A stretch of 16,607 nt of DNA from Arcobacter sp. GTDB lineage: Bacteria > Campylobacterota > Campylobacteria > Campylobacterales > Arcobacteraceae. The notes under the pieces are model-generated. The model searched no databases, was not told where the DNA came from, and saw only the letters and a list, made by a program, of their open reading frames with translations. Position numbers and translations under genes: made by a program. Within the stretch, counting starts at the first letter, position 1. Each line of letters opens with the position of its first letter. The DNA is taken from positions 2,462-19,068 of the forward strand of contig CBFIGT010000037.1 of NCBI GenBank assembly GCA_965662175.1, given 5' to 3'. This document shows positions 1-16,607 of the stretch, one piece after another.

Positions 1-1459
1 TAATTCTTTCTTTTCCTATTTCGGCTATTGTTTTATACCCTGCTTTGTAAGCTTCACTTTTTTCATCTGTAAGTTCTGGAAGTTGTACCATGATAAATTT
101 TCTATTTCCTCCATCTTGGGCATTTAAATCCATAACTGCGTGGGCTGTTGTTGCTGAGCCTGAGAAGAAGTCTAGGATTATTGAATTGTTATTATTATCA
201 ATTATTCTATTCATAAACCAACTTATGTATTCAATAGGTTTTGAATAATCAAAGATTTTTTTTTCAAATAATTTTGCTAATTTTTTAGTAGATTTTGTTG
301 TACTATATTCATTTATTACTCCTAATGGGGTTTTTCTTCTCTCAATAGGATTACCTTCATTATCTGCTTTTAAATATATCTTATTATAAACTGATAATTC
401 TCCTTTACTATCTGGCTTTATTACTATGTATCCATTTTCTTTTCCCCATATAACTTTCTCTTTTCCCCACATCCATCTTCTAACTTTTTCACCGTTTTTA
501 TTTGGATAAACAACATTACCATAATCATCTTCAATTGGAAAATCAAGACTTTCTATATATCCTAAACCATTATCTGCAAGTTTTCTTAATAAATATTTTC
601 CTCTAATATCAATATATTCATCACTTTCCGTATATCTACTTTCATTATCTATCTCCTCACCAATAATATTTAATAAATTTATATTTTTAGAATAAACTAA
701 ACAATATTCATGTTTTATTCTAAATAATTTAGAGTCTGAACCACCACCACCTTCTTTATTTTCCCAAACTAAATCTGCAACAAAATTCCCCTCCCCAAAA
801 ACCTCATCACAAATCTTCCTTAAATTATGCACTTCATTATCATCAATAGATATAAAAATAACTCCATCATCTTTTAGTAAATCTCTTGCTACTAATAGTC
901 TTTCATACATCATACTTAGCCAATCACTATGAAATCTTCCATTTGAGTCTGTATTTTTAAAGAGTTTATTTCCCTCTTCATCTCTTAAGTTTATATCATC
1001 TTCAAAATCAACTTTGCTTTTTGTGAAGTTATCACGATAAACGAAATCTTTTCCTGTGTTGTATGGTGGGTCTATATATATCATTTTGATTTTGTTTAGG
1101 TAGCTTTCACTTAAAATCTTTAGCACTTCAAAGTTATCGCCCTCGATATATAGATTTTGAGTATTATCAAAATCTACACTCTCTTCTTTACAAGGTCGGA
1201 GGGTTTTATTTATAGATGTGTTTGCTTTTAGCAATGATGCTTTTTTACCAGGCCAATCAAGTCTATATCTCTCTTCATCACCCTCAACTATATCTTCACT
1301 TAGCATTTGTTTTAAAAGGTCAAAATCTATGGCTTTTTTACCATCTATTTCTGTGCTTACATTTGGAAATAGTTTTAAAATATTTTCAATATTTTCATTT
1401 GTTTTATTTGGTGTTTGCATTTTTAGCTTATTTTGCTTATCTAAATTTAATTCATTCAT
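1..1459 (-). CDS. mod: Type III restriction-modification DNA adenine methyltransferase (Mod subunit), 3' end truncated by window edge
   Basis: Not in the ORF track. My manual translation is open from ATG 1459 to the left edge: MNELNLDKQNKLKMQTPN...LDWPGKK...NLYIEGDNFEVLK...IYIDPPYNTG (motif IV at 1061-1072)...HSDWLSMMYERL...VIFISIDDNE...TRD...DFFSGSATTAHAV (motif I at 155-172)...KTIAEIGKERI. The beta-class order IV-TRD-I is typical of Type III Mod. The start overlaps the upstream stop (ATGAATGA). Confidence 0.93.
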   Translation of the reverse strand, partial: MNELNLDKQNKLKMQTPNKTNENIENILKLFPNVSTEIDGKKAIDFDLLKQMLSEDIVEGDEERYRLDWPGKKASLLKANTSINKTLRPCKEESVDFDNTQNLYIEGDNFEVLKILSESYLNKIKMIYIDPPYNTGKDFVYRDNFTKSKVDFEDDINLRDEEGNKLFKNTDSNGRFHSDWLSMMYERLLVARDLLKDDGVIFISIDDNEVHNLRKICDEVFGEGNFVADLVWENKEGGGGSDSKLFRIKHEYCLVYSKNINLLNIIGEEIDNESRYTESDEYIDIRGKYLLRKLADNGLGYIESLDFPIEDDYGNVVYPNKNGEKVRRWMWGKEKVIWGKENGYIVIKPDSKGELSVYNKIYLKADNEGNPIERRKTPLGVINEYSTTKSTKKLAKLFEKKIFDYSKPIEYISWFMNRIIDNNNNSIILDFFSGSATTAHAVMDLNAQDGGNRKFIMVQLPELTDEKSEAYKAGYKTIAEIGKERI

Positions 1460-2075
1460 CTATTTGTATTTCCTTTAGTATAGTTTGGAGTTGATTTTCT
1501 TTTGGTTTGAGTAATGTTGAGTGTTCTAGTTTTTTCTTAAACTGCTTCTCTTTTGATATTTTGTTTTCTAAAGCTTGTATCTCTTTTTGAAGTGTTTCTA
1601 TTGTATTTTCAATCTCATAAGATTTAATAAAATCATTTTTGATATTTCTTGCAGCTGTTTTAAAAAATGTTTGGATTATATTTTCATACACTTTTTTCAA
1701 ATTTGTTTGTGAAAAATCAAACTCTTTTTCTTCATCCCATTGTGAAAAAAAGTATTGATTTTTTTCTTTATAAAATATTGCAAAACAAAAGCTATCTTCA
1801 TAAATAAACTTATAAAGTATTGGAGTGTTTACTAATTCATCTATATTTTTTATAGCTATTTTTGGTAGTGCTTTTTCTTTTAATACTATTTCAAAGATCA
1901 ATATCTCAACTATTTTTTCTGTTTTTTCTATATTTATAGTTGCTGGGGAGAGTTTATATTTTAATGTTATTTTTTCAATATTTTCAAATATTCTTTTCCC
2001 ATTTATAATTTTTGTTTCAAAAGATTTTTTAGGTAAAAACCTATTTGCAAAACATGAAGATGGAAGATTAAACAT
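1452..2075 (-). CDS. DUF4391-like protein associated with Type III R-M loci
   Basis: 207 aa. N-terminal MFNLP..PKKSF, central KITLKYKLSPATINI/EILIFEIVLK, C-terminal coiled coil ending LENKISKEKQFKKKLE. These resemble DUF4391 proteins as I recall them. The ATG directly abuts the helicase TAG (TAGATG). Confidence 0.75.
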   Translation of the reverse strand: MFNLPSSCFANRFLPKKSFETKIINGKRIFENIEKITLKYKLSPATINIEKTEKIVEILIFEIVLKEKALPKIAIKNIDELVNTPILYKFIYEDSFCFAIFYKEKNQYFFSQWDEEKEFDFSQTNLKKVYENIIQTFFKTAARNIKNDFIKSYEIENTIETLQKEIQALENKISKEKQFKKKLEHSTLLKPKENQLQTILKEIQIDE

Positions 2076-5000
2076 CTATTTTACCACCACAAAAGCAATA
2101 AGCTCAAAATCTTCAAGTCCATTTAGTTCATTTTCTAAAAAAGTTGTAGCTCCACCACTAAATAGTGATTCAATATCACTTTGCTCTTTTGTATCTATTA
2201 TTGAAGATATTGCGTTATTTAGTAAAGATGAGTAAGTACTCATATCTTTTCCATCATTTGTTTCATCATTAAAGAGTGTATAAACTTCTCTTAGTGGCTC
2301 ATCATTTGTTTTACATAATACTCTTAAAGTATCTAAGATATTTTTTACATTTAGATGATTTAATTTCACCTCGCCATCTTGTGAAATATATACTAAATAA
2401 AAAGGATGAAGTTGATTTATATTGTCTATATTTACATCACTATTGATATTTTTTAGTACAAAGATTACACCCTCTTCTATATTTTTACTTATATCTTTTT
2501 TACATACACTATGAACTCCACAACTCACATCTTTTATATCACCTTTTGTTTGCAAAAAGTTGATTAAGTCCATACGAAAATCATTTAATCCCAAATCTGT
2601 AATAGAGATAGAACTATCCATATCTTCAATATCCACAACTTCATTTTGTAGTTTTTGAAGCTGTTGTTTTCTAAAATCCATTTGAGAAGATTTATTTGTT
2701 AAAACATTATCTTCACCTGTTGCGGTTGTATCAACCATAAACATACGAGTCTCTACTCTATTTTTTAAGTTGATATACTCATCTAGGCTTATTTGTGGCC
2801 AAAAGTTTATGAGTTGAATAAACTCATTTTGACTTCCGATTCTATCAACTCTACCAAATCTCTGAATAATTCGTACAGGATTCCAGTGAATATCGTAGTT
2901 TATAAGTGTGTCACAATCTTGTAAATTCTGTCCTTCACTTATACAATCAGTTGCTATTAGGATATCTAGCTCTTTTTCATTTGCTTTTAGTTTTTTATTT
3001 TTTGATAGCGGTGAAAAATGACAAAGGATATTATTGAATTCATTATGAATATTGAGTGTTGATTTATTTGCACCACTTCCTGTGATTTTTGCTGTTTGAA
3101 GATTTAGTGATAAATTAAAATCTTTTAGTTGTTCATATAAATAGTTCGCAGTATCTGCAAAAGCTGTAAAGATTATGATTTTTTTATTTGCTTTATTGTT
3201 ATTATGGTTTATTGGATGTTCTATTTTTTCTATTATTTTTGATTTTAGGATATTTAGTTTTTTGTCATTTTTAGAATCTACTTTTTTCATATCTTCTAAA
3301 ATAAATAAAGCTGTTTGCAAATCCTCTTCCAAATCTTGCTTCCAACCTGTTGTATTCATATCACATAGATTTATTTTGACTTTTTTACCTATGCTAAACT
3401 CATCATCAAGCCACTCTTCACTCTCCATATCCTCAAGTTCTATAATATTTTCATCATCTATTGAAGATTCAATACCACTTTCAAACTCTTCTATTTTTTG
3501 TAAAATATTTTTGATATTTCTTGCAAAATTATCTAAAGTAATTCTAAAACTATCAACAGAACTTTCAAGTCTTTTTAGAAAGTTTACTCTCATCAAGATT
3601 TTTAGATTGTTTTCTCTATTTTTTTGTTTTAGTGTTGCGTTGTTATTTACTTTATCATCATAAAGTTTACTATAAAACTCTTCTCTTGATTCTAAAATAT
3701 AGTTAAAAGGAGTGTAAACACCCATATTAAAAGTAGATAGTTTTTTATATATTTCCTCGATTTTCATAACATTTTCAAGTGCTGTAATATCACATCTTAA
3801 TGTTTGAGGTTCTAATCTTGTAGGGAATTTTCCAATCTCACCCATATCATAATATTTTTCAATATGTTTTCTACTTCGTGCTATTGTTACACTATCAAGA
3901 AGTTTAAAGAAATCAAAGTTAAGATTAAGTTCATCTAAGAGTTTTTTGCTTGTTCTCTCACTTGCACTTAGTTTTGACCAAGTATTAAAAGTAAGTTGTG
4001 CTTTTCTTAGAATACTATCAATAGAAGCACTTACATTTAGTTTGTCATTTTTTAAGTGAGTATAGCCCTCAAAAGCCAAAGCTAATTGGTTTTTCAAATC
4101 TGTAAAACGATTGTTTACAGGTGTTGCACTTAGCATCAAAAGTTTTGTTTTTACACCTGTTTTTATAGTATTTAGAAGCTTTTGGTATCTTGTAGTTTTC
4201 TCTTTTCTTGCATCATTGTTTCTAAAATTGTGAGATTCATCTATTACTATCAAGTCATAATTTGACCAATTGATTCTTGATAAATCAATACCATTAGAGA
4301 AGCCTCTTTCTCTTAAAATATCAGTATGATATAGAACATCATAGTTTAGTCTATCAAGTAAGAGTGGGTTATCTTCATAGTTATTTAAAAAGGTTTTCCA
4401 GTTGTCCCCTAATTTTTTTGGACAAAGGACTAAAATAGATTTGTTTCTCTCTTGATAATATTTTATCACTCCAAGTGCTGTAAAGGTTTTACCAAGTCCC
4501 ACTGAATCAGCCAAAATACAACCATTGTATCTTTCAAGTTTATTTATAAGAGCTAAAACTGCATCTTTTTGAAAATCATAAAGCTTATTCCAAACGATAC
4601 TATCTTTGAAACCTGTTTTTTCATTTGCTAATTCGTCTTCATTTAAATCTTCTAAAAACTCATCAAAAATATGATACAAGATAAGATAATAAATAAATTC
4701 AGGTGAATTTTCTTTATAAAGATTATCAATATAAGCTATCACTTCAGGTGTTATATCTTTTAAGATATTTTCATCATTCCAAACACTATTAAAACTTTTT
4801 AAGAACTCTTTTGTAGTGTTATTATCTTCTATTTTGTTTATAAGTCTTAGGGCTGAGTCATCTTTTTTGTAGCCAAATCCAGCACTACTAAACTCATCCA
4901 TTCCAAGATATGTGGATTTATCTTCTTCATTATCAACTATTAGCATAGCTTGAATTGAGTTTTTACCACGATTAGATTTAAATTTCACTTTCTTTTCAAC

Positions 5001-5327
5001 CCAAGCTCTACACTCTTTGGCTATCGTTCGCCCTTTTAGTTCATTTTTTAGATTTATTTCAAAAGAGGTTCCACTTATTGATTTTTCTATATTTGCTTGA
5101 TTTATTGTGAAATATTTGCTTTTTTTGTTTTCATTATCTGTTTTTATAAAAGTTGGGTCTGTAAATATAAAACGAAGATTTTCAATTTTTCCTAACTCTT
5201 TTTTCAAACTCTCAAATCCATAAATTGAAAAAAGTGATGAAGCAACCGCTATTTTAGAACTTTTATTAATAGTACTTTTTAAATCATCACCTACAATGTT
5301 TATTTTATTATCGAAAGTTTTTATCAC
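2076..5327 (-). CDS. SNF2-related superfamily 2 helicase/ATPase with N-terminal degenerate PLD-like domain
   Basis: 1083 aa, GTG start. Walker A-like LADSVGLGKT (aa 272-281), motif II IDESH (aa 362-366), motif III LSATP, motif V SEGQNLQ, WNP and motif VI QRFGRVDRIG. The N-terminal ~190 aa has a PLD-like layout (FSIYGF...LRFIF...F..VWND) without HxK. Confidence 0.9.
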   Translation of the reverse strand: MIKTFDNKINIVGDDLKSTINKSSKIAVASSLFSIYGFESLKKELGKIENLRFIFTDPTFIKTDNENKKSKYFTINQANIEKSISGTSFEINLKNELKGRTIAKECRAWVEKKVKFKSNRGKNSIQAMLIVDNEEDKSTYLGMDEFSSAGFGYKKDDSALRLINKIEDNNTTKEFLKSFNSVWNDENILKDITPEVIAYIDNLYKENSPEFIYYLILYHIFDEFLEDLNEDELANEKTGFKDSIVWNKLYDFQKDAVLALINKLERYNGCILADSVGLGKTFTALGVIKYYQERNKSILVLCPKKLGDNWKTFLNNYEDNPLLLDRLNYDVLYHTDILRERGFSNGIDLSRINWSNYDLIVIDESHNFRNNDARKEKTTRYQKLLNTIKTGVKTKLLMLSATPVNNRFTDLKNQLALAFEGYTHLKNDKLNVSASIDSILRKAQLTFNTWSKLSASERTSKKLLDELNLNFDFFKLLDSVTIARSRKHIEKYYDMGEIGKFPTRLEPQTLRCDITALENVMKIEEIYKKLSTFNMGVYTPFNYILESREEFYSKLYDDKVNNNATLKQKNRENNLKILMRVNFLKRLESSVDSFRITLDNFARNIKNILQKIEEFESGIESSIDDENIIELEDMESEEWLDDEFSIGKKVKINLCDMNTTGWKQDLEEDLQTALFILEDMKKVDSKNDKKLNILKSKIIEKIEHPINHNNNKANKKIIIFTAFADTANYLYEQLKDFNLSLNLQTAKITGSGANKSTLNIHNEFNNILCHFSPLSKNKKLKANEKELDILIATDCISEGQNLQDCDTLINYDIHWNPVRIIQRFGRVDRIGSQNEFIQLINFWPQISLDEYINLKNRVETRMFMVDTTATGEDNVLTNKSSQMDFRKQQLQKLQNEVVDIEDMDSSISITDLGLNDFRMDLINFLQTKGDIKDVSCGVHSVCKKDISKNIEEGVIFVLKNINSDVNIDNINQLHPFYLVYISQDGEVKLNHLNVKNILDTLRVLCKTNDEPLREVYTLFNDETNDGKDMSTYSSLLNNAISSIIDTKEQSDIESLFSGGATTFLENELNGLEDFELIAFVVVK

Positions 5328-5370: not shown

Positions 5371-5466
5371 TGTTTTTAATTATATACATTATTTTCCTAA
5401 TTTATGGTAAATAGCATACATATCTTTCTGAATTTTTTATATAGATTTCTTTTTGTAAAGTTACTT

Positions 5467-5670
5467 ATGAAATTAACCCAACAAGATAAAGCAAGATTAT
5501 TAGGTATAGATCCAAGAACATTAAGAAATTGGAGAAAAGAAAAACCCTATTTATATAAGATTATCATGCAAGGATTTGCAATAGAAGAAGCAATTGAAAA
5601 AACTCAGAAAAATTTAGATGAGTTAAAAGCAATATCAGAATTAAAGATAAATTCAAATACAAAAAATTAA
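5467..5670 (+). CDS. Small HTH DNA-binding protein (excisionase/MerR-like HTH, hypothetical)
   Basis: MKLTQQDKARLLGIDPRTLRNWRKEKP is an HTH pattern (A..LG...TL..W) followed by a coiled-coil tail. ATG 5467 is preferred over 5404 because the extension is low-complexity and crosses the divergent promoter region. Confidence 0.65.
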   Translation: MKLTQQDKARLLGIDPRTLRNWRKEKPYLYKIIMQGFAIEEAIEKTQKNLDELKAISELKINSNTKN

Positions 5671-5695
5671 GAAAATAGTTATTACTAGGTAAATA

Positions 5696-5956
5696 TTGAG
5701 AACAATTGAAGACATTGATGAAAATCAAATTGATGATTTTTATAAAACTATCGGCTTAAATGTTAAAAAGAAGAGAATGGAAAAAGGTTTAACTCAACTT
5801 CAACTCTCACAAGCATTAGGTCATAAATCAGTAGGATTAGTTTCTCAATCTGAGCTTTATTTAAAAAAGCAACATTTTAATATTAAACATTTATATCAGA
5901 TTGCATATATTTTGGAGTGTGATATTAGTGATTTTTTAAAAAATAAGATAAGTTAA
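5696..5956 (+). CDS. XRE/Cro-family HTH transcriptional regulator (controller-protein-like)
   Basis: 86 aa, TTG start with AGGT upstream. IGLNVKKKRMEKGLTQLQLSQALG...VSQSE...HLYQIAYILECDISDFL is an HTH_3 signature. Confidence 0.85.
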   Translation: MRTIEDIDENQIDDFYKTIGLNVKKKRMEKGLTQLQLSQALGHKSVGLVSQSELYLKKQHFNIKHLYQIAYILECDISDFLKNKIS

Positions 5957-5987: not shown

Positions 5988-6320
5988 TTATTCACTCATT
6001 TGCTCTTTTAATATTTTTATTAAGATTTCTTCTTTTATATTTGGTATTTCTGTTTTTGAGTATATTTTTAATAAATATAAATTTTCATTTTTATCTATGA
6101 AATAATAAATAACTCTAAAACCACCACTTTTACCTACTTTTGATGATGAATTTTCTAATCTTATTTTGTATAGACTATTTGAGAGTTCAATACCTGCTTT
6201 TGGATTTTCTTTTAAGCTATCATTTAGTGTTTTTAAATCTATTGCTAATTTTTTATTCTTTTTATATAGTTTTTTTACATCTTTTTTAAAAGATTCTAAA
6301 CTAATTATTTTCAAGTTCAT
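5988..6320 (-). CDS. Type II toxin, RelE/ParE superfamily (HigB2-like)
   Basis: 110 aa, basic. FKKDVKKLYKK...YKIRL...GKSGGFRVIYY...LLKIYSKTE is the RelE/HigB2 subfamily signature. It overlaps the antitoxin gene by 20 bp. Confidence 0.88.
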   Translation of the reverse strand: MNLKIISLESFKKDVKKLYKKNKKLAIDLKTLNDSLKENPKAGIELSNSLYKIRLENSSSKVGKSGGFRVIYYFIDKNENLYLLKIYSKTEIPNIKEEILIKILKEQMSE

Positions 6321-6570
6321 TTATCAAATCTTCTAAGCTATCTTCTTTTTTATTATTAGAAATAGCTGTTTTTAACTCTTTAATAGAGTCTTCAAATTCA
6401 TTATAAAAAATATTTTCTTTTTGGGTTTCAACATAAGACCTTATAGCTTCGATTATAACTTCACTTCTATTAACAGAGTATGTTTTTGTAAACTCATCTA
6501 TCTCATCAAGTAAATATTTTGGAACTCTTAAACCAACTTGTTGTTTTTCCAAAGATGATAAGGTATTCAT
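6301..6570 (-). CDS. Ribbon-helix-helix (CopG-like) antitoxin
   Basis: 89 aa. QVGLRVPKYLLDEIDEF...NRSEVIIEAIRSYV is an RHH pattern, followed by an acidic C-terminus. RBS AAGGA at 6580-6576. Lies upstream of the toxin. Confidence 0.85.
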   Translation of the reverse strand: MNTLSSLEKQQVGLRVPKYLLDEIDEFTKTYSVNRSEVIIEAIRSYVETQKENIFYNEFEDSIKELKTAISNNKKEDSLEDLINELENN

Positions 6571-7958: not shown

Positions 7959-8960
7959 ATGAATCCCCAAAGCGCCAAACGAGCAATCACACATCTATGC
8001 AAAAGAAAAGTTCCAATCTTTTTATGGGGACCTCCTGGTATTGGAAAATCTTCAATTGTTGCTCAAATAGCTAAAGAAGAAGAAATAGAGTGTATTGATT
8101 TACGTTTATCTCTTCTTGATCCAACAGATTTAAGAGGTATTCCTTTTTTTAATACAAATGATAATAGTGCTGTTTGGGCTCCTGCTTCATTTTTACCTGA
8201 TGGTTCAAAGGAAAAAGGTATTCTTTTTTTGGATGAGCTTAATACAGCAGCACCCATGGTTCAAGCATCTGCTTATCAACTAATCCTTGATAGAAAAATA
8301 GGTGAATATACTTTGCCTGAGGGTTGGAGTATTGTTGCTGCTGGAAATAGAGAGAGTGATAAGGGTGTAGTTTTTCGTATGGCTGCTCCACTTGCAAATA
8401 GATTTGTGCATTTGGAGATGGAAGTTGATGCAAATGAGTGGAAAAAGTGGGCAATAAAAGCAAATATTGATACCTCTATTATTGCATTTATCTCCTATAG
8501 ACCCGATGCACTTTTTGCTTTTAATACTCAAAAAGATGAAAAAGCTTTTGCAACTCCAAGAACTTGGGAGTATGTAAATGAGATTTTAGCTTCAAAACCT
8601 GATGAAGATTTACTTTTGACTATGATTAAAGGCTCTATTGGAGAAGAGTTAGCGGCCTCTTTTTTAGGATTTAGAAGTGTTGAAAAAAACTTACCTGATA
8701 TTGAAGATATTTTAAATGGCAAAAAAGTAGAAGCTCCACAAGATAGCTCCTCTTTACATATTTTATCAACAGCACTTACTATGAGAATTGATGATGAAAC
8801 AAGAGCAAAAGAGTTAAACAATCTCATAATGTTTACCCTTGATATTCCAGGAGAGTTTGCTGTTATGATTATCCAAGATTTAAGAGATAGAAGTATTGAG
8901 CTTGATTATTTGAGTAATTGGCCTTTATGGATGAAAAAATTTAATAAACTTTTACACTAA
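7959..8960 (+). CDS. MoxR-like AAA+ ATPase (AAA_5-type)
   Basis: 333 aa. Walker A GPPGIGKS, DLRG insert, Walker B LFLDELN, sensor I AAGN, Arg finger LANRF and sensor II TPRTW. Confidence 0.9.
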   Translation: MNPQSAKRAITHLCKRKVPIFLWGPPGIGKSSIVAQIAKEEEIECIDLRLSLLDPTDLRGIPFFNTNDNSAVWAPASFLPDGSKEKGILFLDELNTAAPMVQASAYQLILDRKIGEYTLPEGWSIVAAGNRESDKGVVFRMAAPLANRFVHLEMEVDANEWKKWAIKANIDTSIIAFISYRPDALFAFNTQKDEKAFATPRTWEYVNEILASKPDEDLLLTMIKGSIGEELAASFLGFRSVEKNLPDIEDILNGKKVEAPQDSSSLHILSTALTMRIDDETRAKELNNLIMFTLDIPGEFAVMIIQDLRDRSIELDYLSNWPLWMKKFNKLLH

Positions 8961-8964
8961 TATT

Positions 8965-10074
8965 ATGAATCAAGATACTCTTCTTCTAACAAAAGCAAAA
9001 AGCCAATTAACAGCAAAACATCCATATTTTGGTATTTTAGCTTCAAGATTAAAGCATGAACAAAGTGAAAAGCTTAGATTTTATGCAAGTAATGGAAAAA
9101 GATTTATCTATAATCCTAACTTTATAGAAAATTGCTCTATAGATGAACTTATGTTTATTCTTACAAATTGTGTAATGCACCATATCTTAGCCCATAGTCA
9201 GCGAAAACTAAATAGAAAAGGTGCCCTATGGCAACTAGCTACTGATTTTGCCATAAATAATTTACTTAAAAAAAATGGCTTAAAAATCCCAAAAGGTGCA
9301 AACTTTAATAATGAGTTTAAAAATATGTACGCTGAAGAGATTTATGAGATTTTAAAAGAGCAAAATAATCTCTCTTCAACTAATAGTTTTGAAGATAATG
9401 AAGAAGAAAATGTTTTTTCAGCACTTTCTAAAGTAGATGAAAACTTAAAAGATACAGATGAGGCTGAGTGGGAGTATGCAGCTAGTTTAGCAAAAGAGGT
9501 TGCCCAAAGAAAAAGTAGTACTCCTTTAGGTCTTGAAAGATTAGCTAAAAAAATGGAGACTAAAAATATTGATTGGAAGTTTGAACTTTATAATGCCATA
9601 AATAGACATATGAGAAATAACTATGCTTTTATGCCTCCAAACAAAAAACATATATATAGAGGAATAGCACTTCCAAGTCTTACAAGTGATACTTTGAGTT
9701 TGGTGGTTGCTATTGATACATCAGGAAGTATCAATGATGAACTTTTAGGTGCTTTTATAGATGAGTTTAAATCTATTATGCAAAACTTTCCATCTATTAT
9801 AGTTGAGCTTATAATTGCAGATGCAAAAGTTCAAGCTCATTATACTTTTAGGGGTGCTGATGAGATTGATTTTGAGACAAGAGGTGGTGGGGGAACTGAT
9901 TATAGGGTTGTGTTTGAGTATATTGATTCAAACTTACCAATGAGTTCTATGCTTTTATATTTTACTGATGGGGATGGAATTTTTCCAAAAACTCCACCCT
10001 CATATGAGGTTTTATGGGCACTTTCTCAAAATAAAGAGCGTTTGCCTTTTGGAAGAGGATTACAAATTATTTAA
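8965..10074 (+). CDS. DUF2201-family protein: N-terminal metallopeptidase-like domain (degenerate) plus C-terminal vWA domain
   Basis: 369 aa, 4 bp after the ATPase stop. N-terminal HPYFG...ASNG...YNPNF...NCVMHHILAH...WQLATDFAIN. The vWA MIDAS is intact (IDTSGS, GGGGTDY, FTDGDG). Confidence 0.85.
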   Translation: MNQDTLLLTKAKSQLTAKHPYFGILASRLKHEQSEKLRFYASNGKRFIYNPNFIENCSIDELMFILTNCVMHHILAHSQRKLNRKGALWQLATDFAINNLLKKNGLKIPKGANFNNEFKNMYAEEIYEILKEQNNLSSTNSFEDNEEENVFSALSKVDENLKDTDEAEWEYAASLAKEVAQRKSSTPLGLERLAKKMETKNIDWKFELYNAINRHMRNNYAFMPPNKKHIYRGIALPSLTSDTLSLVVAIDTSGSINDELLGAFIDEFKSIMQNFPSIIVELIIADAKVQAHYTFRGADEIDFETRGGGGTDYRVVFEYIDSNLPMSSMLLYFTDGDGIFPKTPPSYEVLWALSQNKERLPFGRGLQII

Positions 10075-10841: not shown

Positions 10842-12110
10842 ATGCAAAAAGATACTATTGCAGTTCACGCAGGATATAACAATAAAGAGGGATGGGGAAC
10901 AATGTCTGTGCCTATTGCTCAAACTACAGCTTATGCTTTTAGAGATGCTGAGCATGCTGCAAATTTATTTGCACTTAAAGAGTTAGGATCAATTTATACA
11001 AGACTTACAAATCCTACTACTGATGTATTAGAGCAAAGATTTGCTCAACTTGAGGGTGGTGCTGCTGCTATTTGTGTAGCATCTGGTCAAAGTGCTATTT
11101 TTTATGCTATTGCAAATGTAGCAGCAGCAGGTGATAATATTTTAATTTCTGACAAACTATATGGTGGAGCTGTTACACTTTTAACACACACAATTAAAAG
11201 ATTTGGAATAGAAGCTAGAGTATTTAGTGTTTCTGATGCTTCAAATTTAGAAGAGCAAATTGATGATAAAACAAAAGCTATTTTCTTTGAATCTTTATCA
11301 AACCCTCAAATCGCAGTTGCTGATGTTGAAGGTATTGTTGAAATAGCTAAGAAAAAAGGTGTTTTAACTGTATGTGATAACACAGTTGCAAGTGCAGCTT
11401 TATTTAACCCAATCAAATGGGGTGTTGATGTTGTTGTTCATTCAACTTCAAAATATACAAATGGTCAAGGTACTGCTATTGGTGGTATTATTGTTGAAAG
11501 AGATGGATTAGCTGAGTTCTTTAAAGAAAATGCTTCAAGATATCCAGAGTTTACACAACCTGATGAGTCTTACCATGGTTTAGTTTATGTTGATGTTCCT
11601 CTTCCAAACTTTTGTTTAAGAATTAGATTAGCACTTCTTAGAGATATTGGAGCAGCACAATCTCCTCATAACTCTTGGTTATTATTACAAACAATAGAAA
11701 CACTATCTTTAAGAATGGAAAAGCACTCTAATTCTACATTAGAAGTTGCTAAATTCTTAGAATCAAATCCTAAAGTTAAATCAGTTAACTATCCAGGATT
11801 AGAGTCAAATAAAGATTATGGAAAAGCACAAAAATATTTCAAAGATGGGAAAGCTAGTGGTCTTATCTCATTTGAATTAGAATCATATGATGCAGCTAAA
11901 GCTGTAATTGATGCTGCAAAACTATTCTCAGTTGTTGTAAATATTGGGGATAGCAAATCATTAATCGTACATCCAGCATCTACAACTCATTCACAAATGA
12001 GTGAAGCTGAGTTATTAAAAGCAGGTGTTAATCCTACAACTGTTAGGTTATCTATTGGACTTGAAGACCCTAAAGATTTAATTGAAGATTTAACTCAAGC
12101 CTTAAACTAG
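10842..12110 (+). CDS. metY: O-acetylhomoserine/O-acetylserine sulfhydrylase (Cys/Met metabolism PLP enzyme)
   Basis: 422 aa. IYTRLTNPT, LEGG...ASGQSAI, DNT, PLP-lysine motif HSTSKY, NIGDSKSLIVHPASTTH and VRLSIGLED. Confidence 0.92.
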   Translation: MQKDTIAVHAGYNNKEGWGTMSVPIAQTTAYAFRDAEHAANLFALKELGSIYTRLTNPTTDVLEQRFAQLEGGAAAICVASGQSAIFYAIANVAAAGDNILISDKLYGGAVTLLTHTIKRFGIEARVFSVSDASNLEEQIDDKTKAIFFESLSNPQIAVADVEGIVEIAKKKGVLTVCDNTVASAALFNPIKWGVDVVVHSTSKYTNGQGTAIGGIIVERDGLAEFFKENASRYPEFTQPDESYHGLVYVDVPLPNFCLRIRLALLRDIGAAQSPHNSWLLLQTIETLSLRMEKHSNSTLEVAKFLESNPKVKSVNYPGLESNKDYGKAQKYFKDGKASGLISFELESYDAAKAVIDAAKLFSVVVNIGDSKSLIVHPASTTHSQMSEAELLKAGVNPTTVRLSIGLEDPKDLIEDLTQALN

Positions 12111-12120
12111 GAAAGAGATT

Positions 12121-12534
12121 ATGCCTTTAATTTCTTCAAAAGGTGTGTATGGACTTGCTGCCATGCACGAGTTACTTCAAAATGAAGAAGACAAGCCAAT
12201 GCAAATAAGAGAGATATCAGCAAGAGCTGATATTCCTCAAAACTATTTGGAACAACTTTTAAGCAAACTAAGACATGCAGGATTAGTTAAAAGTATAAGA
12301 GGTTCAAAGGGTGGCTATTTATTAGCTCACGATGCAAAAGATATACTTGTAAAAGATATTATTATTGCTTTGGAAGATGATATAAAGATTATCGACACAA
12401 AAAGTAATAGTCCTATTTTAAATATATTTTTTGATGAAACAAAAGAGAAAATGACTAAATTATTTAACTTATCGTTAAAAGATTTAAAACAATATCAAGA
12501 TAAATATAATCAATATTTACACTATAGTATTTAG
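12121..12534 (+). CDS. Rrf2-family transcriptional regulator, CymR-like (no cysteines)
   Basis: 137 aa. [34 protein letters not shown]. It has no Cys, so no IscR-type Fe-S ligands. C-terminus YLHYSI. Confidence 0.9.
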
Positions 12535-12544
12535 GAGAAAAATT

Positions 12545-13474
12545 ATGAAATATGCAAACGATGTAACAGAATTAATTGGGAATACACCTTTAGTAAAATT
12601 AACAAAAGCAAGCTCAACTGGAGCTACAGTTTTAGGTAAATGTGAGTTTATGAATCCATCACATTCAGTAAAAGATAGAATTGGTTTTAATATGATTAAT
12701 GAAGCTATCAAGGCTGGGAAAATCGTAGAGGGAACTACTGTTATTGAGCCAACAAGTGGAAATACTGGTATTGCATTAGCTTCTGTTTGTGCAGCAAAAG
12801 GTATTAAACTAATTCTTACAATGCCATCAAGTATGAGTATTGAAAGAAGAAAACTTTTAAAAGCACTTGGAGCTCAAATTGTATTAACTGAACCTGAAAA
12901 AGGGATGAAAGGTGCTGTTGAAAAAGCAAATGAATTAGCTGATTCAATTGATAACTCTTTTGTACCGCAACAGTTTGCAAATGAAGCAAATCCTGCAATT
13001 CATAGAAAAACAACTGCTCAAGAGATTTTAAAAGATACAGATGGGAAAATTGATATTTTAGTTGCAGCTATTGGGACAGGTGGAAGTATCACTGGTATTT
13101 CTGAGGTTTTAAAAGAGCACAACCCTGATATTAAAGTTATTGCTGTTGAACCTAAAGATTCACCTATTTTATCAGGTGGGAATCCAGGTCCTCATAAAAT
13201 TCAAGGTATTGGAGCAGGATTTATTCCAGCTATTTTAAATACTAAAATTTATGATGAAGTTGTAACTGTTTCAAATGATGAAGCAATGGAAACTTCAAGA
13301 AACTTAGCAAAAGAAGAGGGATTGTTAGTAGGAATTAGTGCAGGAGCAAATGTTTATGCTGCTGCTGTAGTTGCTGCAAGAGATGAAAATAAGGGAAAAA
13401 CTATAGTTACTATTTTATGTGACACAGGTGAAAGATACCTAAGTACTCCTTTATATCAATTAGATGATGAATAA
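12545..13474 (+). CDS. cysK: Cysteine synthase A (O-acetylserine sulfhydrylase)
   Basis: 309 aa. IGNTPLV, SVKDR (PLP Lys), [13 protein letters not shown], the CysK-type loop [13 protein letters not shown], and GERYLST. Confidence 0.96.
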
Positions 13475-13489
13475 AAAAAGATAGGTAAA

Positions 13490-13714
13490 ATGCAAGAAAA
13501 AGCTTATAGATCAGTAGTTAAAACCATTTCGTGGAGAACTTTAGGAACTTTAGACACAATTATTATTTCATACTTTATCACAGGCAACCTAATAATGGCT
13601 GCCTCGATAGGTTCTATTGAAATTGTTACGAAAATGATTTTATACTATTTTCATGAAAGAGCTTGGAATAAAATCTCTTTTGGAAAAATTAAAGAACCAG
13701 ATTATCAAATTTAG
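13490..13714 (+). CDS. DUF2061 small membrane protein
   Basis: 74 aa. RSVVKTISWR...two hydrophobic segments...YYFHERAW is the DUF2061 signature. It carries an extra tail KEPDYQI. Confidence 0.85.
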   Translation: MQEKAYRSVVKTISWRTLGTLDTIIISYFITGNLIMAASIGSIEIVTKMILYYFHERAWNKISFGKIKEPDYQI

Positions 13715-13724
13715 GAATTAACTT

Positions 13725-14426
13725 TTGAAAAAAGAGATTGAAGAATTAAATAAAAAATTAGAAAATAAAACTGCCCAAGAGATTTTAGAATATTTTTTAA
13801 ATAAATACAAAAATGAAGCAGCTTTGTCTTCTAGCTTTGGTGCTGAAGACCAAGTTTTAACTCACATGATGTTAAATATTGATAATAATGCGAATATCTT
13901 TACACTAGATACAGGAAGAGTTCCTTATGAAACATATAGTGTAATGGATAATACAAATTTAAAATATAATATAAAAGTAAATGTATTTTTTCCAAATAAT
14001 GAAGATATTGAAAAGTTATATAAAACTCAAGGAATAAATGGCTTTTATGAATCAATTGAGAATAGAAAAGCTTGTTGTAATGCTAGAAAAATAGAGCCTT
14101 TAAAACGTGCTTTAAAACCACTAAAAATTTGGATTACCGGATTAAGAGCAGCTCAAAGTATCACAAGAGTTGATATGCCAGTTGTTGAATGGGATAAGAA
14201 TTTTGAAGTTATTAAAGTAAACCCTTTGATTAACTGGAGTGAAGGTGATGTTTGGGAATTTATAAAATCAAATAAAATTCCATATAACAAACTTCATGAC
14301 CTTGGATATCCAAGTATTGGATGTGCCCCTTGTACAAGAGCTGTTAAAGAGGGTGAAGATATTAGAAGTGGAAGATGGTGGTGGGAATCCCCTGAGCATA
14401 AAGAGTGTGGTTTACACGCAAAATAA
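13725..14426 (+). CDS. cysH: Adenylyl-sulfate (APS)/PAPS reductase, [4Fe-4S] APS-reductase type
   Basis: 233 aa, TTG start. SSFG, LDTG, CC (aa 117-118), [14 protein letters not shown] and RSGRW...ECGLH. Confidence 0.95.
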
Positions 14427-14439
14427 TATAGGAGAAAAA

Positions 14440-15354
14440 ATGAAAATAAGTCAAGATAGACTAACACACCTAAAACAACTAGAAGCTGAATCTATGCATA
14501 TTATGAGAGAAGTAATAGCTGAATTTCAAAACCCTGCAATGCTTTACTCAGTAGGAAAAGATAGCTCTGTAATGTTACATATATTACAAAAAGCCTTTTA
14601 TCCAGCACCTCCACCACTTCCATTAGTTCATGTTGATACTAAATGGAAATTTAAAGAGATGATTGAGTTTAGAGATAGACGTGCAAAAGAGGTTGGAATG
14701 GAACTAATCACTTACTCTAATCCAAAAGGAATAGAAATGAATATCTCTCCTTTCACTCATGGATCTGCCGTACATACTGATATCATGAAAACTGAGGGTT
14801 TAAAAAATATGTTAAATATCCAAAAGTTTGATGCTGTATTTGGTGGAGCAAGACGTGATGAAGAGAAATCAAGAGCAAAAGAGAGAATCTACTCTTTTAG
14901 AGATGAAAACCATAGATGGGATCCAAAAAACCAAAGACCAGAACTTTGGAATATTTATAATGGAAGACATACTAAAGGTGAATCAATTAGAGTATTCCCA
15001 TTATCTAACTGGACAGAATTAGATATCTGGCAATATATTTATCTTGAAAATATTTCTATTCCTGATTTATACTTCTCAAAAGAGCGTGAAGTAGTAGATT
15101 ATATGGGTACAAAAATCATGGTAGATGATGAAAGAATGCCTGAAGAACTTAGAAAAACAGCAAAAAAAGAAAAAGTAAGATTTAGAACACTTGGGTGTTA
15201 TCCACTAACTGGTGCAGTTGAAAGTGAAGCTACAACATTACCTGAAATTATTCAAGAAATGCTTGTTTGTACAACAAGTGAAAGACAAGGTAGATTAATT
15301 GACTCTGATGGTGATGCATCAATGGAGAAAAAGAAACAAGAAGGGTATTTTTAA
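14440..15354 (+). CDS. cysD: Sulfate adenylyltransferase subunit 2
   Basis: True start is ATG 14440 after RBS AGGAG; the ORF track's upstream extension overlaps cysH. Motifs [40 protein letters not shown] and [10 protein letters not shown]. Confidence 0.97.
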
Positions 15355-15355
15355 G

Positions 15356-16607
15356 ATGGCACATCAATCAGATTTAATAGAAAAAGATATAGAACAATAT
15401 TTACACGAACATGAGAATAAAGAAATATGTAGATTTATCACATGTGGTAGTGTAGATGATGGTAAAAGTACTTTAATTGGTAGACTACTTTATGATTCAA
15501 AAATGATTTTTGAAGATCAATTAGCAGCTATTGAAAAAGATTCTAAAAAAAGTGGAACTACTGGTGATAAAATAGATTTAGCACTTTTAGTTGATGGTCT
15601 TGCAAGTGAGAGAGAACAAGGTATTACAATCGATGTAGCTTATAGATTCTTCTCAACTGAGCGAAGAAAGTTTATCATAGCAGATACTCCAGGTCATGAA
15701 CAATATACTAGAAATATGGCAACAGGTGCTAGTACTGCTGATATTGCTATTATTTTAATAGATGCAAGACAAGGTATTTTAACTCAAACTAAAAGACACT
15801 CTTATATTGCTTCATTATTAGGTATTAAAAACTTAGTAGTTGCTATTAATAAAATGGATTTAGTTGACTTTAGCCAAGATGTATTTGAAGGTATTAAAAA
15901 TGACTATAAAGAAATTATTCCAAATCTTCCACATAATGAAGATTTAAATATTGAGTTTATTCCTATTTCTGCATTAGATGGAGATAATATTTTAACTAAT
16001 ACTCCAAAAGCACCTTGGTATAAAGACAAGCCTTTAATGGAATTACTTGATACTATTTCTATACATGAAAAAGAGAATAACTCATTTAGATTACCAGTTC
16101 AATATGTAGTTAGGCCTCATTTAAACTTTAGAGGATTCTCTGGAACGATTGCAAGTGGAAGTGTTAGTGTTGGTGATGAAATTACAGTATTACCATCAGG
16201 TAAAACATCTAAAGTAAAATCAATAGTATCAAATGATATTAAAGATTTAAGACCAATTGGAAAAGATGAAACAGTAGAAACGATTCCTAAAGCATTTGCT
16301 CCAATGGCTACAACTATTACACTTGAAGACGAGATTGATATCTCACGTGGAGATATGATTGTTAAATCAAGTGATATTCCACAAGTTTCAAATCATTTAA
16401 CTGCAATGGTAGTATGGATGGATGAAACTCCGTTAACTCTAAATCAGAATTATGTAATTAAAAGAGCAACTTCAGTACTTAATGGTGCATTTAATGAAAT
16501 TCAATTTAAAAAGAATATTAATACATTTGAAGAAATAAATGCAGAAAAATTAGAATTAAATGATATTGCACAAGTTACAGTTTCACTAGATAGAGAAATA
16601 GCCGTAG
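15356..16607 (+). CDS. cysN: Sulfate adenylyltransferase subunit 1 (GTPase), truncated by window edge
   Basis: Not in the ORF track. ATG 15356: MAHQSDLIEKDIEQYL...CGSVDDGKSTLIGRLLYDSK...EREQGITIDVAYRFF...DTPGHEQYTRNMATGAST...NKMD...DEIDISRGD. Confidence 0.97.
   Translation, partial: MAHQSDLIEKDIEQYLHEHENKEICRFITCGSVDDGKSTLIGRLLYDSKMIFEDQLAAIEKDSKKSGTTGDKIDLALLVDGLASEREQGITIDVAYRFFSTERRKFIIADTPGHEQYTRNMATGASTADIAIILIDARQGILTQTKRHSYIASLLGIKNLVVAINKMDLVDFSQDVFEGIKNDYKEIIPNLPHNEDLNIEFIPISALDGDNILTNTPKAPWYKDKPLMELLDTISIHEKENNSFRLPVQYVVRPHLNFRGFSGTIASGSVSVGDEITVLPSGKTSKVKSIVSNDIKDLRPIGKDETVETIPKAFAPMATTITLEDEIDISRGDMIVKSSDIPQVSNHLTAMVVWMDETPLTLNQNYVIKRATSVLNGAFNEIQFKKNINTFEEINAEKLELNDIAQVTVSLDREIAV

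Follow-up and report, generated by a model that had tools for sequence, protein, structure and literature searches.

A Type III restriction-modification cassette of Arcobacter sp. with an optional SNF2-DUF4391 module, a proposed accessory motor

Restriction-modification (R-M) of Type III is taught as a two-gene arrangement. In the classical systems EcoP15I and EcoP1I (Mod2Res; PDB 4ZCF), mod, which encodes a DPPY methyltransferase (MTase), is followed by res, whose product combines a superfamily 2 (SF2) ATPase with a C-terminal PD-(D/E)XK nuclease. A Type III enzyme is also expected to hemimethylate an asymmetric site and, given inverted sites, to cleave 25-27 bp from it at the expense of ATP. 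The stretch of Arcobacter sp. DNA analysed here (the window; 16,607 nucleotides (nt), G000:C37:2462-19068, G000 being its own genome, to which contigs C37, C34, C128 and C4 belong) carries at its left end a mod gene of this type preceded by two extra genes, which encode an SNF2-type ATPase and a DUF4391 protein. This cassette also differs from the classical systems by a mod-res spacer that often holds passenger genes and by a Res of a separate clade, the P1/P7 Res being only ~32% identical over 54%. About half of one large Res clade, sampled in two phyla, carries the SNF2-DUF4391 module. The cassette is a real and widespread form of Type III R-M that is apparently undescribed and carries an optional module, probably an accessory motor, and we give about an even chance to the specific reading of a Type III Mod-Res pair with an optional two-gene module acting as an accessory ATP-driven DNA motor.

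Several described systems share parts of this organization. Type ISP enzymes (LlaBIII) offer a functional analogy, since a nuclease, an SF2 translocase and an MTase with its target-recognition domain (MTase-TRD) converge between inverted sites; they are single polypeptides whose helicase and nuclease differ from those of the cassette, which has two ATPases and four genes. Related to the cassette is a pair formed by a PLD-SNF2 motor and a Type IIG-like MTase (the sister system below), whose SNF2 is 45-50% identical to the cassette motor and whose next gene product has an N-terminal domain homologous to DUF4391. In the pair the HKD nuclease is active and the MTase-TRD is a single chain, while the cassette has a dead PLD domain, keeps of the MTase only the N-terminal domain and uses Mod/Res for recognition and cutting; the pair reads as a split version of Type ISP, and becomes a candidate for such a system. 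Pairs of this architecture, PLD-SNF with Cj0031-homologous Type II enzymes, are listed as inversion targets in Milman et al. 2023 (PMC9881135, Table 3) and may belong to the sister clade. DISARM class 1 (DrmD with DrmMI), BREX type 3 (BrxHII) and Type-2 BR/DUF499 share a RapA-type Swi2/Snf2 motor and an N6-adenine MTase, Type-2 BR also the N-terminal HKD on the motor, but no DrmA/B, PglZ, BrxC or DUF499 gene was seen at this locus. The association of RapA-type motors with MTases in BREX/BR systems is treated by Rakesh & Krishnan 2026 (PMC12839542), a paper in which DUF4391 occurs 0 times.

The cassette genes of the window are all encoded by the minus strand. The SNF2 gene (5327-2076; 1083 amino acids (aa), GTG start; Pfam SNF2-rel_dom and Helicase_C) ends with a TAG that meets the ATG of the DUF4391 gene (2075-1452; 207 aa; Pfam DUF4391, E 4.5e-30) at 2076/2075. 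The stop of the latter overlaps by 8 bp (ATGAATGA, 1459-1452) the start of mod (1459-1, continuing past the window's left edge; N-terminal 486 of 630 aa; Pfam N6_N4_Mtase). The initial annotation had described three coupled genes with these junctions, and the open reading frames (ORFs) and both junctions match exactly. It had also placed a res gene just left of the window, where Res is indeed found beyond a MazF-like gene: mod, interrupted there by a 10-N scaffold gap, reaches a length of 630 aa, and next come a 134-aa PemK/MazF-like gene and the start of Res (487 aa) up to the end of contig C37. The C-terminal 272 aa of Res, with its nuclease motif, are found at the end of contig C34, with unrelated genes beyond. 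Because the middle ~250 aa of Res are unassembled, the C37-C34 join is one that we infer, and with it the cassette order SNF2 - DUF4391 - mod - [mazF] - res. The product of mod (568 bits with PADLOC MTase_III) is a beta-class N6-MTase with DPPY (aa 130-133, window 1061-1072) before motif I, and DPPY is present in 55/55 family Mods. Res combines an SF2 ATPase with PD-(D/E)XK (RE_endonuc E 1.4e-29 for its C-terminal part); the Res profile matches 4ZCF chain C with E 2.4e-110, the PADLOC REase_III score is 943 bits, and the nuclease motif and Walker B are each conserved in 49/49 family Res proteins and Walker A in 47/49.

Counts taken from the SNF2 side refer to the best 77 of at least 613 GTDB matches and are biased to close relatives. 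DUF4391 is found downstream of SNF2 in 68/68 loci with at least 600 nt (66 by HMM and two more by tblastn), and where enough sequence was available Mod is present in 62/62 loci and Res in 53/53. Counted by hand over the 71 loci that gave a DUF call, the DUF4391 start lies -13 to +17 nt from the SNF2 stop in 57, a coupling that exceeds chance. Pairwise identities of the cassette proteins co-vary across 45 loci (Spearman 0.92 for SNF2-Res, 0.89 for SNF2-DUF and 0.76 for Mod-Res, correlations inflated by relatedness), and none of 500 permutations was as high. The view of the locus as one co-inherited unit is supported, as res is present, identities of the four genes co-vary and DUF4391/SNF2 homologues without mod/res were essentially never seen across genomes. 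Annotated plasmids from E. coli, Raoultella, Enterococcus and a methanogen show the same gene order. Matches to the cassette were found in 117 plasmid records (Listeria, Enterococcus, Bacillus, E. coli, Acinetobacter), in five phage records and also in archaea. An E. coli plasmid (L005, CP099103.1) and related ~110-kb E. coli IncFIB records carry a passenger-free cassette beside repA, with recA and dnaE homologues on the replicon. Among named homologues, those of Arcobacter and Sulfurimonas come closest. Distribution among relatives is patchy, DUF4391 exceeding the Pfam cut-off in 2/61 genomes, including its own, and in 0/7 congeners.

The SNF2 protein has intact ATPase motifs. All its SF2 motifs are invariant in the alignment of 73 homologues, among them the Walker A lysine K280 (ADSVGLGKT; 4488..4490, minus strand), correctly named in the initial annotation, Walker B DESH (aa 363-366; 4230..4241, minus strand) and the Q, R, G, R, D and R of motif VI, QRFGRVDR, with its arginine fingers (aa 822-829; 2841..2864, minus strand). 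Its median identity of 58% is above those of Res and Mod. The AF2 model has a pLDDT of 73 and a pTM of 0.54; Foldseek places RapA structures at the top, though with an rmsd of about 21, and VIA covers the ATPase core only. The N-terminal ~200 aa (4728..5327, minus strand), overlooked by the initial annotation, align with PLD domains and form a degenerate PLD/HKD domain in which HxK...GSSN is replaced by IQA...GMDEFS (aa 125-147). HxK is found in register in 0/73 cassette SNF2s (two matches are out of register) and in 19/19 sisters partnered with a Type IIG enzyme; an active second nuclease on the cassette motor was rejected.

No named system matched the cassette in a PADLOC profile scan, one of the checks proposed in the initial annotation. 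The best library match of SNF2 is PADLOC C3a139 'HKD+Snf2' (441 bits, nearly full length), followed by partial matches to DrmD, BrxH, DpdE, HmaA and ZorD, and NCBIfam scores are far below cut-off. DISARM class 1 was rejected (NF038317 DrmD 161 bits for a cut-off of 610; the neighbours are DUF4391, Mod, MazF-like and Res), as were the PLD anti-phage model (123 for a cut-off of 1100), BREX/BR (no BrxC, DUF499 or PglZ ORF between the divergent HTH genes and res; BrxHI/II partial, at most 88 bits) and Zorya, Dpd and Hma, for which the matches are only partial and sub-threshold. The cassette does not belong to the PLD-SNF2 + IIG pairs either, since HxK...GSxN is in register in 0/73 of its motors and the adjacent ~1100-1650-aa MTase-TRD is replaced by only a 207-aa homologue. 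No description of the cassette was found in a literature search that left most subscription journals and supplements outside its scope; the supplementary tables of Milman 2023 and of Rakesh & Krishnan 2026 may list loci. The search returned no mention of PF14335, a Goslar mention of DUF4391 is a slip for DUF7941, and the accessible parts of PMC10853773, PMC2292703 and PMC3459991 hold nothing on the cassette. New here are the homology between DUF4391 and an MTase domain, the loss of the PLD motif in a nested clade and a one-way dependence on Mod-Res.

The sister system provides the evidence on the origin of the module. In G556 an SNF2 of 1010 bits with a recognisable PLD domain precedes a frameshifted Eco57I/TaqI_C-type MTase, and DUF4391, Mod and Res are absent; the same PLD-SNF2 + MTase pair is seen in G068 and at many of the 44 metagenome loci. 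Across the sister loci (G556, G068, L196-L237) the motor keeps an active HxK and is followed by an Eco57I/IIG-type MTase of ~1100-1650 aa, with no match to DUF4391, Mod or Res. On the SNF2 tree HxK...GSSN is kept in 19/19 IIG-linked motors and is absent from the 29 Type III-linked ones, which form one clade nested in the former (99 SH-like with 29 rows; 99 SH-aLRT with 13 rows).

DUF4391 is a large and unexplained family, with 4107 clusters when grouped at 50% identity. The window protein has a confident AF2 fold (pLDDT 92.9), composed of an alpha/beta domain (~aa 1-140; within 1452..2075, minus strand) and a C-terminal coiled-coil hairpin (aa 146-207; 1455..1640, minus strand) with helices 149-175 and 179-206, predicted to be a protein-binding arm. 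The E-x-Q-F at its tip is conserved (E176, Q178 and F179 at 90% or more). Sequence comparison shows that DUF4391, through its alpha/beta domain, shares homology with the N-terminal ~225 residues of the MTase of the sister system, with which it aligns collinearly. HHalign of the MTase N-terminus with 12 basal DUF4391s gave 96.0% (E 4.3e-9, 174 columns), a best case because the basal set was picked after the tree was seen. The window protein and these 12 are members of one family (E 4e-45; the member from G050 scores 194.6 bits on PF14335). The best of 49 unrelated control windows scored 23.5 vs 65.7, and a reversed profile 17.3. Reciprocally, 14/16 sister MTase N-termini gave matches to PF14335 that stay under the gathering cut-off (best E 4.1e-5), and only two other Pfam families match the same 16, with one member each. 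When 5172 pooled ORFs, counted with duplicates and holding 333 DUF4391s, were searched by HMM, three self-hits came first and the next 21 rows were all DUF4391. A PD-(D/E)XK (inactive REase) core was looked for in the N-terminal domain of DUF4391: the Foldseek search of the whole protein against the PDB found no match at E 0.001 or better, and its weak rows include a splicing endonuclease and a Holliday-junction resolvase (E 0.4-1). The VIA lists were taken up by the coiled-coil hairpin, with generic matches (best Z 8.6 and 8.3). PDB sequence searches with the DUF4391 and IIG-N-terminus profiles returned nothing significant, and the DUF4391 profile matched neither the Mod nor the Res profile. 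Searches with the IIG-N-terminus profile gave no match in 281 Bacillota-group genomes (run without a positive control) and nothing meaningful in PADLOC. No DUF4391 fusion was found among 8000 longer candidates; among the best 150 representatives, P0288 (an apparent internal-deletion SNF2-DUF join) and P0245, P0281 and P0310 (apparent read-throughs) were not used as evidence.

The module can be absent from Mod-Res. Searches with Res and SNF2 profiles covered 401 Campylobacterota and 281 Pseudomonadota genomes and yielded 38 clade Res genes (37 placed on the tree, one by score), not counting those of this genome and of the search centre. SNF2 is adjacent in 15 of them (DUF4391 status covered in all but six), on another contig in five, reduced to a 97-aa stub with DUF4391 in two, and 16 have no SNF2 found; six of these 16 have full-length Mod and Res and six a split, short or missing Mod. 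The two stub loci, L124 (G190) and L168 (G466), are from separate lineages and keep the last ~97 SNF2 codons directly before intact DUF4391, Mod and Res; SNF2 is also truncated in G116, G170, G472 and G509. In the Res tree (FastTree, 106 rows, midpoint root) all 64 SNF2-linked Res fall in one 90-row clade, in which the SNF2-less ones are scattered tips; another 16 Type III Res sit outside it. The pattern suggests a single gain followed by many losses of the module, provided that the midpoint root holds. The module needs Mod-Res, but Mod-Res does not need the module. An obligate four-subunit enzyme was rejected, and the term 'subunits', used in an obligate sense in the initial annotation, is unsupported because 16/38 clade Res have no SNF2 in the genome searched, several of them with intact-looking Mod and Res. 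In L179 (10000-16452; G651) SNF2 is fused in frame behind a RecD-like AAA_30/UvrD_C helicase (2150 aa) and DUF4391, Mod and Res are intact.

Since DUF4391 is homologous to the MTase N-terminus, the PLD motif was lost within a nested clade and the dependence on Mod-Res is one-way, the cassette is likely a chimera, in which a nuclease-dead translocase and a detached docking domain would be joined to a self-sufficient Type III enzyme; the module was likely captured from the sister PLD-SNF2 + Type IIG MTase system. The homologous MTase domain belongs to the partner of the sister motors, which gives real support to the earlier idea of a DUF4391 adaptor, and a placement of DUF4391 as a detached N-terminal MTase domain gives the family an origin and a specific binding prediction. 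The Res genes found with a stub or without SNF2, some with full-length Mod and Res, weigh against this interpretation, as do the following points. HHalign gave only 53.7% (E 1.3e-4) with a profile led by the window DUF4391 and 37.7% with a deeper one. The ESM Atlas led DUF4391 to its own family only and the IIG N-terminus to low-score unnamed clusters only, with no link between the two. In both tests of the homology the best control windows paired an internal helical hairpin of the MTase with the C-terminal hairpin of DUF4391 (E 0.0035), and such hairpin similarity may be that of generic coiled coils. Nesting of the cassette SNF2s depends on a root placed on long branches (outgroup warnings), translocation by SNF2 is assumed from family membership, and the docking of the motor by the sister MTase N-terminus is itself deduced.

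A mechanism can be proposed on this basis. In the ancestor the MTase-TRD would have read the site, the MTase N-terminal domain would have docked PLD-SNF2, and the PLD domain would have cut. Type III mod/res would then have replaced the MTase, leaving its docking domain over as DUF4391, and the PLD domain would have decayed because Res supplies the nuclease. In the present cassette DUF4391 would hold SNF2 via the old interface and join it to Mod2Res via the coiled-coil hairpin. At an unmethylated site SNF2 would translocate with force, clearing RNA polymerase, phage DNA-binding or anti-restriction proteins, or driving two site-loaded complexes together, which would go beyond what a merely diffusing Res can do. 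EcoP15I communicates by diffusion, according to PMC4490356, and a Type ISP enzyme that translocates displaces nucleosomes, unlike EcoP1I, which diffuses, according to bioRxiv 10.1101/2025.01.15.633181. A RapA-like translocase would provide the force absent from Type III enzymes. Cleavage would remain that of Res and inverted sites would still be required, which would spare self DNA. Without the inverted-site requirement of Type III enzymes newly replicated self DNA would be exposed, for which reason its loss is disfavoured. A stronger form, which we regard as doubtful, is a motorised four-subunit Type III machine: a captured, nuclease-dead PLD-SNF2 tethered to Mod2Res by the IIG-derived docking domain would converge directionally and with force in place of passive diffusion, and the dead PLDs would dimerise on collision, pairing two Res nucleases. 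If true, restriction would survive protein roadblocks and DNA-shielding phage proteins, and the cassette would be a widespread unrecognised Type III subtype, in which a defence motor was rewired onto another system via a detachable adaptor.

The one-way dependence, the first position of the module in the operon and the mobility of the cassette (117 plasmid records; 2/61 relatives and 0/7 congeners) would suit a role in self-protection, in which SNF2-DUF4391 strips or restrains Mod2Res on host DNA, aids establishment in a naive unmethylated host or under replication stress, and is lost after domestication; RapA-like motors take off bound proteins. The classical Type III systems of P1/P7, themselves mobile, do without such genes and the very strong conservation of the motor suits a core defence activity equally well, so that we consider self-protection unlikely. 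Inserted genes suggest another role. They occur in 33/57 loci with both SNF2 and Res; of 54 passengers, 52 were scanned and include RhuM (6), Schlafen (6), Fic (3) and AAA_21 (3), and also GmrSD, Abi_2 and PIN. At this locus a MazF-like gene occupies the position. SNF2-DUF4391 could then watch Mod-Res or phage anti-restriction proteins and fire a backup effector, either a passenger toxin or nuclease or a site-independent Res. Such second-line sensing appears rather improbable, as 24/57 loci are passenger-free, the passengers are mutually unrelated and the motor's own nuclease is dead. The repeated loss of the module, the stubs of G190 and G466 and the truncated SNF2s are what would be expected of a decaying relic hitch-hiking with Type III R-M or of an independent passenger working alone, for example in RNA-polymerase recycling. 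Co-divergence with Res across bacteria and archaea and the invariant ATPase motifs point to long-term selection in a Type III context, and no full-length cassette SNF2 lacks a downstream Mod where the contig allowed (62/62), which leaves little probability for a relic or passenger. Natural alleles with the module, without it or with a stub, together with the E. coli plasmid copy, make the question of the accessory motor directly testable.

The activity of the Mod encoded by this copy is uncertain because of the scaffold gap in mod and a four-residue deletion. The four residues, missing just left of the window, include a Gly-Phe pair invariant in 42 aligned Mods (45/55 with a looser regex). A ~97%-like contig holds them and bridges the 10-N gap in frame, while a 99%-like run, which may be the source sample, has no insertion at this site. 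The ~97%-like relative also has a different middle part of mod, which a swapped target-recognition domain would be expected to give. Loci L170 (G474) and L177 (G518) have a tandem duplicated mod before res, suggesting specificity stacking. The PemK/MazF-like gene between mod and res (G000:C37:1556-1960, L001) has a GC content of 0.205 vs 0.278 in its neighbours and two paralogues on contig C4; no adjacent antitoxin ORF was seen.

Divergent from the SNF2 gene are two small helix-turn-helix (HTH) ORFs, 5404-5956 (plus strand) and 5988-6570 (minus strand), with weak HTH_23 and HTH_3 matches. The cassette is bounded by these ORFs and by a ParE/RelE-type toxin with a putative antitoxin; a WYL regulator is found at the corresponding place in other cassettes. 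A related contig omits ~336 nt of the region upstream of SNF2. A scan for promoters found no more than chance would give (36 vs 37.4), and RNA contigs of run X18 covered only small pieces. Farther right, labels given by eye are a MoxR-like AAA ATPase followed by a metallopeptidase/vWA-like protein (7959-10074, plus strand) and an ordinary housekeeping sulfur assimilation cluster (10842-16607, plus strand: O-acetylhomoserine sulfhydrylase, Rrf2 regulator, cysK, cysH, cysD and cysN). Elsewhere in the same genome, G000:C128:1-6136 holds a second, different pairing of an SNF2 with Type III-like genes, labelled from motifs seen by eye and from local HMMs. It comprises part of a RapA-like SNF2, a Mod of 977 aa whose N-terminus is extended by ~400 aa, and a gene of PHP + ATPase-like type; here an SNF2 motor may have been coupled independently to a Type III MTase.

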